Positions 38,186-55,304 of a DNA stretch of 55,325 nucleotides are shown piece by piece. This stretch comes from an uncultured Spirochaetales bacterium (lineage in GTDB: Bacteria; Spirochaetota; Spirochaetia; DTKZ01): the NCBI GenBank assembly GCA_937991975.1, contig CALKLC010000146.1:1-55325 (forward strand), given 5' to 3'. A program made the translations under genes and the position numbers. Position 1 is the stretch's first letter. Every line of letters begins with the position of its first letter. The notes beneath the pieces are model-generated. The model did no database searches. It saw only the letters and a program-made list of their open reading frames with translations, and was not told the DNA's origin.

Positions 38186-38599
38186 GGACTATATTTATAT
38201 ATTTACTTATTTTAAATATTTTACTTTATTTAACATTTTAAATTGTTATTCCACTTTTTGTCAAGAAAAAATTTTTTAAAAGTGTATGAGGCCCTGTGAA
38301 GGGTAAAAAAGTGGATGGCGAAGGAGGAGAGCCGTCAGCTGAACCACTGTTCGCTGCCCCTCACACTGTGGGGTCGGCTCAAAGAGTAGGACGAACTCGG
38401 CGGTGTTCCACCTTACCCTGTACGAACGGTTGCAGAGGAATGGCATCCTGCGGGAAGGCTCTGGGGTACAAACAGATAAGGGCACAGAGTCCCTTCGTGT
38501 AACAGTCGAAAGGGGACGGTGTTCACACAGGGGGATGTAATCCTCTACATTGACAAAGAGAAATTCATTCTTTATAGTGAAATCCCGAATTGCCAAACT

Positions 38600-38684
38600 G
38601 GAGAGGTGTCCGAGTGGTCGAAGGAGGCGGTCTTGAAAACCGTTGAGCCGCAAGGCTCCGTGGGTTCGAATCCCACCTTCTCCG
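38600..38684 (+). tRNA. tRNA-Ser (anticodon UGA)
   Basis: Hand fold: acceptor GGAGAGG/CTTCTCC, anticodon loop CTTGAAA, long variable arm, T-loop GGTTCGAATCC. Confidence 0.9.
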
Positions 38685-38698
38685 AGGTATTGGACATT

Positions 38699-38786
<88 letters not shown>

Positions 38787-38789
38787 GAT

Positions 38790-38863
38790 GTGCCCATAGC
38801 TCAGCTGGATAGAGTATCAGATTGCGGATCTGATGGTCGGAGGTTCGAATCCTCTTGGGCACG
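38790..38863 (+). tRNA. tRNA-Arg (anticodon GCG)
   Basis: Hand fold: acceptor GTGCCCA/TGGGCAC, D-arm GCTCAGCTGGATAGAGT, anticodon stem TCAGA/TCTGA with loop TTGCGGA (34-36 = GCG), T-loop GGTTCGAATCC. Confidence 0.85.
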
Positions 38864-38869
38864 TGAACT

Positions 38870-38958
38870 GGAGAGATGCGAGAGCGGTCGAATCGGGCGG
38901 ACTCGAAATCCGTTGTACCGCGCAAGCGGTACCGAGGGTTCGAATCCCTCTCTCTCCG
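38870..38958 (+). tRNA. tRNA-Ser (anticodon CGA)
   Basis: Hand fold: acceptor GGAGAGA, anticodon loop CTCGAAA, long variable arm, T-loop GGTTCGAATCC. Confidence 0.9.
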
Positions 38959-39245
38959 TTCCTCTCGCAGCTCCAGTGGGTGCGAAAGCATACCGCTGGG
39001 GTATCCTGTTTATGTGAACGCGCATCACCTGGTTGTCCAGTGGATGTGAAACGGACGCCGAAGTGTAAAGGCACGCTGCCGGATTGTCCAGTTTATGCGA
39101 ACGTGCGCCGTAGCGTAAACGTAGGGTATGCAATAGGTGAAGCGTTTTGTGGGTTTACAATATGCGCACGCTGCTGCGTAAACCCAAGGTTGCGGTAGGG
39201 GTGTATGGTGGGTTTTTGATAAATGCATCTGGGAACGCTCGAATT

Positions 39246-39333
39246 GGAGAGATGTCCGAGAGGCCGAAGGAGCACGCTTGGAAAGTGTGTGTACCCTAAC
39301 CGGGTACCGAGGGTTCGAATCCCTCTCTCTCCG
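39246..39333 (+). tRNA. tRNA-Ser (anticodon GGA)
   Basis: Hand fold: acceptor GGAGAGA, anticodon loop TTGGAAA, long variable arm. The 3' half is identical to tRNA-Ser(CGA). Confidence 0.9.
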
Positions 39334-39338
39334 GATTA

Positions 39339-39461
39339 CCCCTTTAGTACTTAGGTTAGGTTCCGTGCAATCTGCTGTCACCCAACCCCGTCAGGCCCGG
39401 AAGGGAGCAGCGGTAAGTGATCAGGGATGTGCCACGGGGTACTTAACCGGTGCTAAGGGGG
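39339..39461 (+). ncRNA. ffs: Signal recognition particle RNA (small, 4.5S-type)
   Basis: Contains GTCAGGCCCGGAAGGGAGCAGC, the conserved domain IV with a GGAA tetraloop. The flanks pair (CCCCTTTAGTAC... with ...GTGCTAAGGGG) into one long hairpin, followed by GTTTTT. Classic position upstream of dnaX-ybaB-recR. Ends approximate. Confidence 0.75.
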
Positions 39462-49758: not shown

Positions 49759-50208
49759 ATGCTAATCGGTATTTCACCTGTAATTGGTCCGGATCTACTA
49801 AACGTTTTGTACCGGATGGGGCATGGGGACGAACTGGTACTTGCGGATGCTTTTTTCCCGGGAGAGTCGTGCAACAGCCGAGTGATTCGGGCAGATGGTA
49901 TCCGTATCCCGGATTTACTGGACGGGATCCTGCGGTTGATCAATCTGGATACCTATGTGGCCCATCCACTGGTGATGATGGCTCCTGTTCCGGGAGACGA
50001 ACTGGATCCAGGGGTAGAACGTTCCTACCGCGAGGTGATCGATCGGTTGTGGCCCGGGACTCCTTCCATCGAGCGGATCGAGCGGTTTGCCTTCTATGAA
50101 CGGGCAAAGAAAGCCTTTGCCGTGGTAATGACAGGGGAAACAGTGAAGTATGCCAACATCATCCTGAAAAAGGGGGTAATTCCCATCTCGAGGCCGTTGG
50201 ATCATTAA
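49759..50208 (+). CDS. fucU: L-fucose mutarotase (RbsD/FucU family)
   Basis: 149 aa. [65 protein letters not shown]. Collinear with FucU as remembered. No other fucose genes nearby. Confidence 0.85.
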
Positions 50209-50283
50209 TGACTCCTCTGGTGAGCCTGGTAGTGGGTTTCGGATTGAAGGACATACGACTAAAAGGGTGTTGTGTCGATGTTA

Positions 50284-50312
50284 TTGAATCTTACCTGCAT
50301 GTTTGTTATCAT
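50284..50312 (+). promoter_or_regulatory. Sigma-70-like promoter TTGAAT-17 nt-TATCAT
   Basis: TTGAAT 50284-50289, 17-nt spacer, TATCAT 50307-50312. Lies about 10-15 nt upstream of the riboswitch aptamer. Confidence 0.5.
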
Positions 50313-50321
50313 ATTGGCTAA

Positions 50322-50410
50322 TCGAGAGAGGCGATGAGGCTCGCCTTGAACCGCCGGTTTGGCTGATAGCCTCTATGAAGGGACTCCCCTCCATAGAGGC
50401 TTTTTTCTTT
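50322..50410 (+). promoter_or_regulatory. Fluoride riboswitch (crcB motif) with terminator expression platform
   Basis: GGCGAUGAGGCUCGCC-UUGAAC-CGCCGGUUUGGC-UGAUA-GCCUCUAU matches the conserved fluoride aptamer: P1 50330-33/50342-45 and pseudoknot GAGGCU 50336-41 with AGCCUC 50368-73. The 3' strand is shared with the terminator. Confidence 0.88.
50368..50410 (+). terminator. Rho-independent terminator (riboswitch expression platform)
   Basis: Stem AGCCTCTATG (50368-77) / CATAGAGGCT (50392-50401), followed by TTTTTTCTTT. Confidence 0.85.
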
Positions 50411-50427
50411 GGGGGGGCGTTAAGGGG

Positions 50428-50473
50428 AACGCCTAATAACAATAGGAAGAAACGCCCAATAACAATAGGAAGA
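50428..50473 (+). repeat. Tandem 23-bp direct repeat AACGCC(T/C)AATAACAATAGGAAGA x2
   Basis: 50428-50450 and 50451-50473 differ at one position. The repeat ends 17 nt before the ATG at 50491. Confidence 0.9.
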
Positions 50474-50490: not shown

Positions 50491-52029
50491 ATGAATAATT
50501 TTCCCACTGTAAGCATCCTGTTTGATAAAGATGTTTCCCTGGCACAGGCGGTTGCACAACCGGATTGCTTGCATGATCTGAATCTGGACCAACTTATAGA
50601 TGCTATTACCGGGCCAAAGCAGGAGTACGATTTAACCCCCTTTTTCTACACCCCTCTGCGGGATCCAGATACTGTGCGATATCGGCAGGAAGTGATGCGG
50701 GATCTGGAGAATGAATCTCTCATAGAGCACATCAAGGCTTTCTCGAAGGGAATGAGCACTGTCCGACGCTACCTGGGTATGGCGGAAAAATTGGACTTCG
50801 AGTATCACAGGATGGGCTGGACACTGGAGGCAGCCCTGGTTTACTGCGATACAGTAATGGCAGTATCCCCTCATCTGGCGACTGACTCCTTACGATCCCG
50901 CGGGTTAAGAGCGATCCGGGAGTACGTGGAGCAGTATGTTTCTTCACCTTCATTCCAGGTATTGGCATCCGAAGCGCGGCAGGTGAAGCAAGCTTTGGAA
51001 GAGGTGCAGTACTCTGTGATCATCGAGGGCGGCAAGTTCCGCGTAAAGCGGTACGAGGGCGAGGCAGAGTACGGCATAGAGGTGGAGAAAACTTTCGAGA
51101 AATTCAAACAAACCGACGCACAGGATTACCTGAAGCGGATCCCTGAAAGAAGCGGGATGAGCCACATCGAAGCAAAGATTCTCGAGTTCGTCGTTAAATT
51201 GTTCCCGGAACCCTTTGCCGCATTGACTCACTTCTGTAACCAGCGTTTCCCCTTCATCGACGAAAGGATTCAAACTTTTGACCGGGAGATCCAGTTTTAT
51301 CTGGCCTATCTGGATTTCATAGCCGATCTCAAGCGTCGGGGGCTGCCTTTCTGCTATCCCCAACTAAGCGCCGCAAGCAAGGAGATCTACCTGTACGACG
51401 GCTTTGACCTGGCTCTTGCCCATGCCCACCGGTATAACCAGCAGCCTATAGTTCTGAATGACTTTTCTCTACAGGATTCGAAGCGCATCCTTGTCGTTAC
51501 TGGACCCAATCAGGGGGGGAAGACCACGTTTGCCCGTATGTTTGGACAGGTCCATTACCTTGCAAGCCTTGGCTGTCCTGTGCCGGGACGGGAAGCGCGC
51601 CTTTTCCTTTTCGACCGAATCTTTACTCATTTTGAACGCGCAGAGGATGTTCGTACCCTGCGCAGCAAACTGGAAGATGACCTGTTCCGCATGCACTCCA
51701 TGCTCGCTCAGGCCACTCCTGAAAGCCTCTTTATCTTGAACGAGATTTTTACTTCTACGACAGTTCACGACGCCCTCCTGCTGAGTAGAGAGATCATGGC
51801 ACAGCTGACCGATAGGGATGTGCTGGCCTGCTGGGTCACCTTTCTGGACGAACTGGCTTCGCTGAATGAGAAAACCGTCAGCATGGTCGCTTTGGTCGAT
51901 CCAGAAGACCCTGCCAGACGCACCTTCAAGGTCGTACGGATGCCGGCCAACGGACTTGCTTACGCTATGTCGCTAGCCCGCAAATACCGCCTGACCCGTG
52001 AGCAACTCAAGGAACGGTTATCACCATGA
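50491..52029 (+). CDS. MutS-family ATPase paralog A (domain V only; no mismatch-binding or Smr domain)
   Basis: 512 aa. Walker A VVTGPNQGGKTTFARM, LRSKLEDDLFRM, Walker-B region SLFILNEIFTSTT, FLDEL. The N-terminal helical region has TPLRDPDTVRYRQEVMRDL, like the MutS core. Confidence 0.8.
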   Translation: MNNFPTVSILFDKDVSLAQAVAQPDCLHDLNLDQLIDAITGPKQEYDLTPFFYTPLRDPDTVRYRQEVMRDLENESLIEHIKAFSKGMSTVRRYLGMAEKLDFEYHRMGWTLEAALVYCDTVMAVSPHLATDSLRSRGLRAIREYVEQYVSSPSFQVLASEARQVKQALEEVQYSVIIEGGKFRVKRYEGEAEYGIEVEKTFEKFKQTDAQDYLKRIPERSGMSHIEAKILEFVVKLFPEPFAALTHFCNQRFPFIDERIQTFDREIQFYLAYLDFIADLKRRGLPFCYPQLSAASKEIYLYDGFDLALAHAHRYNQQPIVLNDFSLQDSKRILVVTGPNQGGKTTFARMFGQVHYLASLGCPVPGREARLFLFDRIFTHFERAEDVRTLRSKLEDDLFRMHSMLAQATPESLFILNEIFTSTTVHDALLLSREIMAQLTDRDVLACWVTFLDELASLNEKTVSMVALVDPEDPARRTFKVVRMPANGLAYAMSLARKYRLTREQLKERLSP

Positions 52030-53549
52030 AAGTGTTTCTCCTCTACCCTGACAGGGATTTCGATCTGTCAAAGCCATTGCCGCCCCTCATCGAGGCTCTG
52101 GAAAGAGATCTGGGGCTCGATATTCTTCTCAACACCATGGCTCAGGGTGATCGATTCCTCTACCAGGTGGCGCGGCAGGTTCTGCTGTCGATCCAGGACG
52201 ACTCTGCAGTGATTGCCTACCGTCAGGGAATTCTAGAGGATTGCCTCCAGCATGCCGGGGTTGTCCAGCAGCTCTACCGGATCCCCCTGGAGTTCCTGGA
52301 ACGGAAGCGCAAATACTTGCTGTGGATCTCCCTACGGCATTCCAGCCCCGGTTCTCTCCTCAGTAGTGCGCGGCAATTAATTGAATCCTCCCTCGACCTG
52401 CTGCGGCAGCTGCGTCAAATTGCCGACCAGAACTGTAAAACATTTGCTTCGGAAGGATTCCGTCGGTTCTTTCGCATGATTCAGCAGGAACTGAACGACG
52501 CATACCTGGAAGTTGTGAAAGGGCACATCCAGATGCTCCGTTTTCCCCACGGTGTCCTGCTCAGGGTGCGTTTAGGTAAGGGGAACGAGGGAGTGGATTA
52601 TGAGCTCTGCAAGCCCAACGGCGCGAACAAGAACTGGCTGCAACGACTTTTCACCTCCCGTTCACATAGCTATTCCTATACCCTTCACCCCCGTGATGAA
52701 GCTGGGGCCCGTATCTTGAGCGAGTTGCGTGACAGGGGGCTTGCCCTGACAGCGAATGCAGTTGCCCAGGCCGCCGAACATATCGAGAGCTTCCTCCATA
52801 TCTTGCAATGGGAACTGGCATTCTACATGGGATGTATGAATCTTTCCAATCAACTGACCGCGTGGGGTTTCCCTGTGGCATTCCCCCAGGTTGCACCCAC
52901 CTCCGAGCATGGGTTTTCCTGCAGGGGATTGTACGATGTCTCCCTGGCGCTAACGATGGGAAATGGTGTCGTAGGGAACGATGTGTCCGCCGAGGGAAAA
53001 CCGCTGGTGCTTATTACAGGGCCGAACAAGGGCGGCAAGACAACCTTTCTCCGTAGTGTGGGGCAAGCGTATCTGATGATGCAGAGCGGGATGTTTGTGC
53101 CGGCAGAAAGTCTCTCCGCCAGCCTGTGCTCGGGCCTTTTCACGCACTTCAAACGGGAGGAGGATGGGACAATGGAGAGCGGCAAATTCGATGAGGAACT
53201 CAGCCGCATGAGTACGATCGTTGATCATCTCACCCCACATGCGATACTCCTGCTGAACGAATCCTTTGCCGCCACCAACGAGCGAGAAGGTTCGCAAATT
53301 GCCTGGCAGATCGTCGATGCCCTTCTCGAAAAGGGCCTCCGGGTGTTCTATGTTACCCATCTCTACGAGTTTGCCCGCCGCTGTTACGAAGAGGAAGGAG
53401 AAAAAATCCTTTTCCTCCGTGCCGAAAGGCTACCGGATGGAACCCGTACCTTCCGACTCAAGGAAGCCCACCCAATGGAGACAAGCCATGGGATGGACCT
53501 GTACAGGAGGATATTTGGCGTCGAACGACAGAAGAGTATGGCCGGATGA
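52026..53549 (+). CDS. MutS-family ATPase paralog B (domain V only; no mismatch-binding or Smr domain)
   Basis: 507 aa. ATGA overlap with paralog A. Walker A LITGPNKGGKTTFLRS, SGKFDEELSRM, Walker-B region ILLLNESFAATNEREG, VTHLYEFA. Confidence 0.8.
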   Translation: MKVFLLYPDRDFDLSKPLPPLIEALERDLGLDILLNTMAQGDRFLYQVARQVLLSIQDDSAVIAYRQGILEDCLQHAGVVQQLYRIPLEFLERKRKYLLWISLRHSSPGSLLSSARQLIESSLDLLRQLRQIADQNCKTFASEGFRRFFRMIQQELNDAYLEVVKGHIQMLRFPHGVLLRVRLGKGNEGVDYELCKPNGANKNWLQRLFTSRSHSYSYTLHPRDEAGARILSELRDRGLALTANAVAQAAEHIESFLHILQWELAFYMGCMNLSNQLTAWGFPVAFPQVAPTSEHGFSCRGLYDVSLALTMGNGVVGNDVSAEGKPLVLITGPNKGGKTTFLRSVGQAYLMMQSGMFVPAESLSASLCSGLFTHFKREEDGTMESGKFDEELSRMSTIVDHLTPHAILLLNESFAATNEREGSQIAWQIVDALLEKGLRVFYVTHLYEFARRCYEEEGEKILFLRAERLPDGTRTFRLKEAHPMETSHGMDLYRRIFGVERQKSMAG

Positions 53550-53702
53550 ACCTGGCTTCCCAACCTGGTACGTGAACTTTAAAATTATTTTACCAAGAGA
53601 TTTTTGGGTAATAGTTAAAGGCACTAATGAATAAATAAGGAGAGTGTGGAAAAATAATAGTATAAACGTTATGATAGAACGATAAGTCTGGAAGGTGAAG
53701 CT

Positions 53703-55304
53703 GTGGTAAAACAGAAGAAAAATATCAAGAAACACAAAGATAAAAACAAAACCAGCGGCGCAACCATCGGCTATGAAGCCGAACTATGGGACATGGCGGA
53801 TGCACTACGAGGCAGTATGGACGCTGCTGAATATAAGCATGTTGTCCTTGGTCTACTGTTCCTAAAGTATGTTTCTGATTCATTTGAAGAACAGCATAAA
53901 AAACTTGAGGCTGAACGGGAAAAGGGTGCAGACCCTGAAGACCCGGACGAGTACCTTGCAGAGAATATCTTTTGGGTGCCACAGGAAGCACGTTGGGGTT
54001 ACTTGAAGGCAAATGCGAAACAGCCGAACATCGGCCAGTTGGTGGACGATGCTATGGCAGCTATTGAAAGAGATAACCCCGCACTCAAGGGAGTCCTCCC
54101 TAATGATTACGCCCGTCCGGCACTGGATAAAACGCGGTTGGGTCAGCTGGTAGACTTGATCAGTAATATTCAGGTGGGGAACAAGGAAAGCCGATCGAAA
54201 GACATACTCGGCAGAGTTTATGAGTACTTTCTCTCGAAATTTGCCAGTGCGGAAGGGAAAAAAGGAGGGGAATTCTATACGCCCCGTTGTGTGGTTAAGC
54301 TCCTGGTTGAAATGATCGAACCTTACCGAGGGAGGGTATACGACCCCTGCTGCGGTTCATCGGGGATGTTCGTTCAATCAGTGGAATTCATCCGTGCACA
54401 TGCAAGCGGCAATGGGAACGGTGGAGGAGTCCGAGCTGATATCTCTATTTATGGTCAGGAATTGAACTATACCACCTGGAAACTCGCCCGGATGAACCTT
54501 GCGATTCGCGGTATCGATGCTAAGATTGCCCACGGTGACACATTCCATAATGATTGTTTCCCGGATCTTAAAGCTGATTTTATCCTGGCCAATCCTCCCT
54601 TTAACGTATCGAATTGGGGTGGCGATCTTTTACGAAATGACAAGCGGTGGAAGTACGGCGTGCCTCCTGTGGGAAATGCGAACTTTGCCTGGGTCCAGCA
54701 CATCATCTATCATCTAGCGCCAGGGGGTATGGCAGGATTTGTACTGGCTAATGGTTCCATGTCTTCAAATCAATCGGGAGAGGGCGAGATCCGTAAAAAT
54801 ATAATCGAAGCTGATCTGGTGGACTGTATGGTAGCTTTGCCTGGACAACTCTTCTACTCTACTCAGATTCCTGCTTGCCTGTGGTTTCTTTCTCGAGATC
54901 GTAAAAAGGGAAAGTTCCGCGAGCGGAGTGGCGAGGTGCTATTTATTGACGCTAGGAAAATGGGCCGGCTGGCTGATCGCATCCATCGTGAGTTGACAGA
55001 AGAGGACATTACCCGGATAGCCAATACATACCATGCTTGGCGCGGTGAGGCAATAGGCGGATCCCAGCGCACAGAATATAAGGACGTCCCCGGATTTTGT
55101 AAGAGCGCTACGCTGGATGAAATCCGCAAAAATGGTTACGTGCTTACACCAGGGAGGTATGTTGGCGTAGCCCCACAGGATGAGGACGACGAGCCGTTCG
55201 AGGAAAAAATGCACCGGCTTGTCGCCCAATTGCGCGAGCAACAGGCCGAGGCGGCACGGCTGGATGAAGCGATTGGGAGGAATTTGAAGGAATTAGGCTT
55301 CTAA
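53703..55304 (+). CDS. hsdM: Type I restriction-modification system, DNA methylase subunit
   Basis: 533 aa, GTG start after GGAAGGTGA. The HsdM N-domain ([32 protein letters not shown]), motif [11 protein letters not shown] and motif IV LANPPFN. An ATG at 55306 starts a further ORF (probably hsdS), truncated by the window end. Confidence 0.92.

Follow-up and report, generated by a model that had tools for sequence, protein, structure and literature searches.

A link between the crcB motif RNA, now known as the fluoride riboswitch (Rfam RF01734), and genes of the MutS family is on record, and Baker et al. 2012 reportedly list MutS among riboswitch-associated genes. Among the genes that accompany the crcB motif, mutS was named by Weinberg et al. 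2010 (Genome Biol 11:R31; PMC2864571), who in addition observed an overlap of terminators with the motif; the supplements of that study hold nothing further on mutS. The association of the motif with DNA repair (mutS) was repeated by Sherlock and Breaker 2020, together with an account of the identification of fluoride as the ligand (PMC7266159). In the mechanism described for the class, binding of fluoride blocks formation of the terminator (PMC8004769). A functional study of the fluoride-associated MutS-like proteins was not found in the open-access full text searched, where Weinberg et al. 2010 was the only relevant return.

Here a locus of this kind is described from a 55,325-nt contig of an uncultured Spirochaetales bacterium (CALKLC010000146.1), referred to in its full length as the window. 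The RNA is very probably a transcriptional fluoride-ON riboswitch governing a two-gene operon that encodes a pair of MutS-like ATPases, A and B. If it behaves as the characterised members of its family do, its ligand would be fluoride and its polarity ON.

Anatomy of the switch

The features between the upstream gene and the start of gene A are as follows.

49759-50208, + strand: fucU, the gene upstream of the switch (Pfam)
50284..50312, + strand: predicted sigma-70-type promoter (TTGAAT, 17-nt spacer, TGtTATCAT; 9/12 matches in the scan)
50321..50382, + strand: fluoride riboswitch aptamer, RF01734 (covariance-model score and covariation)
50330-50333 with 50342-50345, + strand: P1, GGCG with CGCC (RF01734 alignment)
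50353-50355 with 50361-50363, + strand: second hairpin, GCC with GGC (RF01734 alignment)
50336-50341 with 50368-50373, + strand: pseudoknot, GAGGCU with AGCCUC, from the P1 loop to the 3' tail
50368..50406, + strand: intrinsic terminator, the expression platform (folding and repeat finder; hairpin of -21.2 kcal/mol)
50428..50473, + strand: tandem 23-nt direct repeat, AACGCC(T/C)AATAACAATAGGAAGA twice, in the 5' UTR from the terminator to the start of gene A

A fluoride aptamer had been proposed here in a sequence-only reading of the window, and a search with RF01734 bears it out. The match at 50321-50382 (+) extends over all 64 model positions and reaches 44.5 bits, where the gathering score is 34, with an E-value of 4e-9 for the whole window and 2.3e-11 in a local rescan; it is the sole riboswitch match of Rfam 15 over the whole window. 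The local alignment places GAUG in the P1 loop, AACCGCC..GGCUGAU around the second hairpin and CCUCUA in the 3' tail. The unpaired nucleotides of the binding core are all present (GAUG of the P1 loop, the AACC linker, the CUGAU linker and the U-A after the pseudoknot); they match the Rfam consensus and are invariant or nearly so in an alignment of 48 sequences. Judged by its sequence, the RNA is a genuine fluoride riboswitch of a well-known class. The second hairpin is termed P2 in some papers, where P3 is kept for the pseudoknot (PMC8004769). A minus-strand match to the sok antitoxin RNA (RF01794; 50298-50457, 18.1 bits, gathering score 59, E 0.05) was rejected as noise because it is produced by the terminator hairpin.

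The three helices of the aptamer, which the sequence-only reading had drawn in the same places, are supported by covariation. The alignment comprised 48 aptamers from related loci together with the window, and from it a covariance model, R1, was built and run on all loci. Across the 48 sequences 96.4% of the cells in the three helices are paired, in an alignment that leans somewhat towards fluoride-aptamer structure because its homologs were selected by a regular expression, and 10 of the 14 pairs have changed on both sides. When the 3' partners were slid by 1-3 columns as a control, pairing fell to 37-57%. P1 is 98.4% paired with compensatory changes in 2/4 pairs, the second hairpin is 90.5% paired with covariation in 4/4, and the pseudoknot is 99% paired with changes on both sides in 4/6. 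Every nucleotide that is invariant in the 48 homologous aptamers is also found in the window aptamer, which scores 64.5 bits with R1.

The aptamer shares sequence with its expression platform. The arms of the terminator (50368-50382 and 50387-50401) are 15 nt long and 93% complementary according to the repeat finder, and the hairpin is followed by U6 (T6, 50401-50406). Its 5' arm begins with AGCCUC (50368-50373), which is also the 3' strand of the pseudoknot; this double use, recognised in the sequence-only reading, is seen in the fold and recurs in 63/69 loci with an upstream aptamer (from the best 80 of 535 relatives, see below), where the terminator 5' arm overlaps the pseudoknot 3' strand. 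A hairpin and T-run lie 3' of the aptamer in 67 of the same 69. The leader at 50318-50412 folds at -37.9 kcal/mol (z = -2.9) into P1, a small hairpin and a long hairpin. The terminator was missed by a simple terminator scan and recovered by folding and the repeat finder.

The promoter has hexamers TTGAAT at 50284-50289 (-35) and TATCAT at 50307-50312 (-10, with an extended -10 TG), as described previously from the letters of the sequence, and it implies a transcription start near 50319-50321. The scan by itself is weak evidence, because it returned 2 sites where chance alone would give 1.3. In the two closest relatives, L083 and L084, near-consensus hexamers resembling TTGACA and TATAAT lie at the same distance from the aptamer, in surrounding sequence that does not align with the window. 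Logan annotation gives a 37-aa ORF at 50208-50321 (768-881 of contig L081), without a Pfam match, that takes in the stop codon of fucU, the predicted promoter and the aptamer's first base; it is most likely a spurious gene call.

In the proposed mechanism transcription would start at about 50320, driven by the promoter at 50284-50312. Without fluoride, AGCCUCUAUGAAGGG (50368-50382) would pair with 50387-50401, and the hairpin with its U6 would end transcription near 50406. Once fluoride and Mg2+ are present, the aptamer would hold AGCCUC (50368-50373) in the pseudoknot with GAGGCU (50336-50341), so that the terminator would be blocked and RNA polymerase would read into genes A and B. The start and stop codons of the two genes overlap, and the proteins are therefore probably made together and likely to act as a heterodimer.

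Between the terminator and gene A, the leader extends for about 85 nt in the window versus about 25-30 nt in L083 and L084. It holds the tandem 23-nt repeat, which is found nowhere else in the window (0 expected by chance) and is absent from both of these relatives; the repeat is for this reason regarded as a lineage-specific insertion or duplication outside the conserved switch. It doubles an SD-like AGGAAGA motif, and a small hairpin, GGCGTT..AACGCC, lies alongside it at about 50417-50433.

Riboswitch and MutS-like genes in related loci

Relatives of protein A were collected with one genome per GTDB species. From 535 confirmed relatives the best 80 loci, with 52-68% identity to A, were carried forward. 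These best 80 of 535 include Chloroflexota, Nitrospirota, Desulfobacterota, Atribacterota, Spirochaetes, Acetothermia and others, as well as Firmicutes (Thermoanaerobacter, Moorella and Sporomusaceae). The nearest named homologs are spread over Anaerolineae, Gemmataceae and Desulfobacterota, and Desulfosoma caldarium and Moorella naiadis (L073) are among the carriers that have been cultured.

Of the best 80 of 535, 77 loci have at least 300 nt of upstream sequence and could be used for counting. In 48/77 an aptamer precedes the A homolog on its own strand by no more than 400 nt, and in a further 21/77 it lies 0.4-4.2 kb upstream in the same operon, with same-strand genes between and often in the company of crcB, enolase, a Na+/H+ exchanger or Usp, giving 69/77 in total; in the remaining 8/77 no aptamer was found by R1 within the fetched flank. 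The order riboswitch, A, B is nearly universal in these loci and is conserved across phyla. The sequence-only reading had implied that a switch placed before MutS-like genes "instead of a fluoride exporter" was out of the ordinary. This part of it does not hold: given the 69/77 loci (from the best 80 of 535) and the appearance of mutS in PMC2864571, a riboswitch before MutS-like genes is the rule in the family of protein A and is not unusual.

The counts depend to some degree on the model. R1 was trained on the same loci, and its hits at about 21-35 bits may include false positives. In a subset of 17 loci, RF01734 at its gathering score recovered 14 aptamers, including 10/15 of the nearest-upstream R1 hits; 4 further R1 hits were recovered by RF01734 at 25-31 bits, and one, the L038 aptamer, gave no Rfam match at E <= 0.05. 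The exact number of aptamers thus depends on the model and the conclusion does not. Four loci with RF01734 scores of 25-31 bits, below the gathering score of 34 (L004:688-748, L007:2070-2131, L065:3262-3338 and L057:5792-5859), carry clear homologs of the window aptamer, with terminators and the same gene context, and it follows that standard Rfam annotation under-calls the MutS-associated subtype.

The remaining genes of the related operons make up the classic fluoride regulon: they encode CrcB, DUF190-CBS, a Na+/H+ exchanger, Usp, enolase, an MFS transporter, a dynamin-like GTPase and an uncharacterised protein of about 480 aa. The dynamin-family GTPase, with a DUF6062 match, is represented by ORFs of 151-631 aa in 11 riboswitch loci. 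The family without a Pfam match (198-507 aa, mostly about 480-507 aa) occurs in 6 loci, always between the riboswitch and MutS-like A. Examples of the two are L029:9081-10859, L056:89-1975, L024:195-1640 and L030:3957-5480.

The comparison bears on other readings of the element. It may be asked whether the aptamer is a chance or decayed match without a regulatory role, the hairpin and U6 being the terminator of fucU. The hairpin does follow fucU on the same strand, at a distance of about 160 nt, and it would also halt read-through from that gene, yet RF01734 reaches E 4e-9 across the whole window, all nucleotides invariant in the 48 homologs are present, and a predicted promoter stands between fucU and the aptamer. 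In 69/77 loci (from the best 80 of 535), moreover, aptamer and terminator go with the MutS-like genes and not with fucU, while the upstream neighbours differ from one locus to another. This explanation has practically no chance of being right. Another possibility is that the fluoride-aptamer fold serves here as a specificity variant for a different ligand relevant to MutS-like proteins, seeing that a MutS-associated subtype can be recognised (GAGGCU/AGCCUC and a UGAUAG linker versus GGAGUU/ACUCC and UGAUGA in Rfam) and that several MutS-associated aptamers fall below the Rfam gathering score. The differences of the subtype are, however, compensatory changes in the pseudoknot that spare the invariant positions; crcB, enolase and Na+/H+ exchanger genes occur in the same operons of related loci; and both aptamer subtypes are present in some loci, for example L045, L064 and L077. 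To our knowledge no ligand variant of the fluoride riboswitch class has been reported, and the chance of one at this locus is very slim.

There is also a slim chance that control is mainly translational, or both transcriptional and translational, rather than by termination alone. The unusually long leader of about 85 nt and its tandem repeat with SD-like AGGAAGA motifs would suit such an arrangement, but the ribosome-binding region is about 100 nt away from the aptamer, with which it does not pair in the predicted fold; as an insertion, the long leader is peculiar to the window, and relatives retain the canonical terminator with U6 that is present here. Fluoride-dependent relief of termination remains the preferred reading of the switch.

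The MutS-like pair and its surroundings

The genes downstream of the switch and an RNA gene elsewhere in the window are listed here.

50491..52029, + strand: MutS-like ATPase A, 512 aa (MutS core and domain V; Walker A GPNQGGKT)
52026..53549, + strand: MutS-like ATPase B, 507 aa, a paralog of A
53703-55304: hsdM, type I restriction-modification methylase, next after B (Pfam, NCBIfam)
39354-39451: small SRP RNA, last in a tRNA cluster

Gene B starts within the stop codon of gene A, in the overlap ATGA, and the two proteins are 29% identical over the C-terminal (ATPase) half. Pfam finds MutS_V in both, in keeping with their earlier description as MutS-family ATPases, and nothing else; the mismatch-binding domain I, the connector domain II and Smr were not detected by Pfam in either protein. 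Scores for A and B with the NCBIfam models are 63-94 bits for MutS (MutS1) against cut-offs of 480-642, 60-76 bits for MutS2 (TIGR01069) against a cut-off of 400, and 52-68 bits for KamC, the lysine 5,6-aminomutase reactivase ATPase (NF052383), against a cut-off of 300. As all of these lie far below the cut-offs, A and B are not equivalogs of any of the named families. Their kinship to KamC is distant and runs through the common ATPase domain only. By sequence both match the MutS core and ATPase with E 1e-17 to 1e-18. With the structure of A predicted by AlphaFold (mean pLDDT 73, pTM 0.70), Foldseek retrieved MutS, MSH2/3/6 and the Thermus MutS2 core, over about 540 alignment columns and with E 1e-13 to 1e-15.

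In place of the Asp-Glu of MutS, MutS2 and the MSH proteins, the Walker B motif reads Asn-Glu (Asn417-Glu418 in A, Asn411-Glu412 in B); in alignments these residues fall opposite D693-E694 of E. coli MutS and the corresponding Asp-Glu in MutS2 and in Taq MutS. The Asn-Glu is at least 98% conserved among 77 A-type and 71 B-type sequences and does not vary in a separate alignment of 58 A homologs. Protein A has an invariant Phe451 at the position of MutS His728 (the region of A residues 450-451) and protein B keeps the Thr-His motif, a difference that suggests an asymmetric heterodimer. In E. coli MutS, the engineered D693N substitution, which replaces the Asp that coordinates Mg2+, lowers the affinity for Mg2+, slows ATP-driven switching and impairs repair in vivo (PMC2857095).

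Since neither a mismatch-recognition domain nor an Smr nuclease domain was found by Pfam, classical mismatch repair is unlikely for A and B, and a role in fluoride stress is implied by co-regulation only. Mg-fluoride species poison ordinary NTPases. It is a tentative idea, and on balance an unlikely one, that the pair is a dedicated fluoride-stress machine and not a mismatch-repair enzyme, in which the Walker B Asn makes the switch insensitive, or responsive, to Mg-fluoride; the altered Mg2+ site may be linked to Mg-fluoride chemistry, which is speculation. If this were true, A and B could remain functional at high fluoride, or serve there as sensors or repair factors.

The observation that no crcB or eriC-F gene follows the switch stands, as the next gene after A and B is hsdM according to Pfam. 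In tblastn searches of the 55-kb window with queries taken from related loci, CrcB (three sequences), DUF190-CBS, the Na+/H+ exchanger, enolase, Usp, the dynamin-like protein and the 481-aa uncharacterised protein gave no match at E <= 0.01; eriC-F was not among the queries, and the three ORFs downstream were checked by Pfam. An AT-rich spacer of about 150 nt separates B from hsdM, and GC content is 0.42 at 53500-53999 (a 500-nt interval) versus about 0.55 in genes A and B. A search of the interval from B to hsdM for an intrinsic terminator gave none, which leaves the 3' end of the regulated transcript uncertain; co-transcription of hsdM with A and B is possible. The exact protein was found only in the Logan metagenome assemblies ERR9287621 and ERR9287890, and hsdM is also the neighbour in the two Logan contigs that carry it and not in other relatives. 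Elsewhere in the window an RNA gene cluster at 38599-39451 contains four tRNA-Ser genes (tga, gct, cga, gga) and tRNA-Arg (gcg), followed by the small SRP RNA.

Comparison with known systems

The riboswitch call alone matters little, as any Rfam-based annotation would label the aptamer and the link to mutS was published in 2010. The locus is a clean example, with promoter, aptamer, terminator and A/B operon and no other fluoride gene found nearby. The riboswitch itself is routine and the remaining interest lies in the fluoride-induced MutS-like pair, which raises the question of why bacteria of many phyla induce paired, truncated MutS-like ATPases under fluoride. Testable handles on this question are the invariable pairing of A and B, the conserved Walker B Asn, and the co-operonic crcB, enolase, Usp and dynamin-like genes.

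The proteins resemble known MutS relatives in part. A and B are similar in size to the Thermus thermophilus MutS2 core (PDB 7vuf) and share its core and ATPase, and the engineered E. coli MutS D693N (PDB 3k0s) carries the Walker B Asn that A and B have naturally. They differ from MutS in their length of about 510 aa versus about 800 aa, in that domains I and II are not detected, and in the use of Asn-Glu instead of Asp-Glu; unlike MutS2, they are without a detected Smr domain. In contrast to both MutS and MutS2, the pair is probably heteromeric, with catalytic-site residues that differ between A and B.

The RNA shares its fold, conserved nucleotides and terminator-overlap ON design with the Bacillus cereus crcB leader and the Thermotoga petrophila aptamer. 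Compared with the RF01734 class, the window has the pseudoknot GAGGCU/AGCCUC rather than GGAGUU/ACUCC, and its second hairpin has 3 base pairs and a possible G-U pair, unlike the class examples; beyond its downstream genes, nothing more than ordinary sequence variation separates it from them. With the crcB-motif RNAs upstream of mutS of Weinberg et al. 2010 it has in common both the gene association in the 5' UTR and the terminator overlap. What goes beyond that study is the occurrence of the riboswitch-A-B unit in 69/77 loci (from the best 80 of 535), the constant occurrence of the paralogs as a pair and the Walker B Asn-Glu. These additions consist of numbers and anatomy and leave the kind of system unchanged; as the RNA class and its mutS context have both been published, the window element is a standard instance of a system already known.
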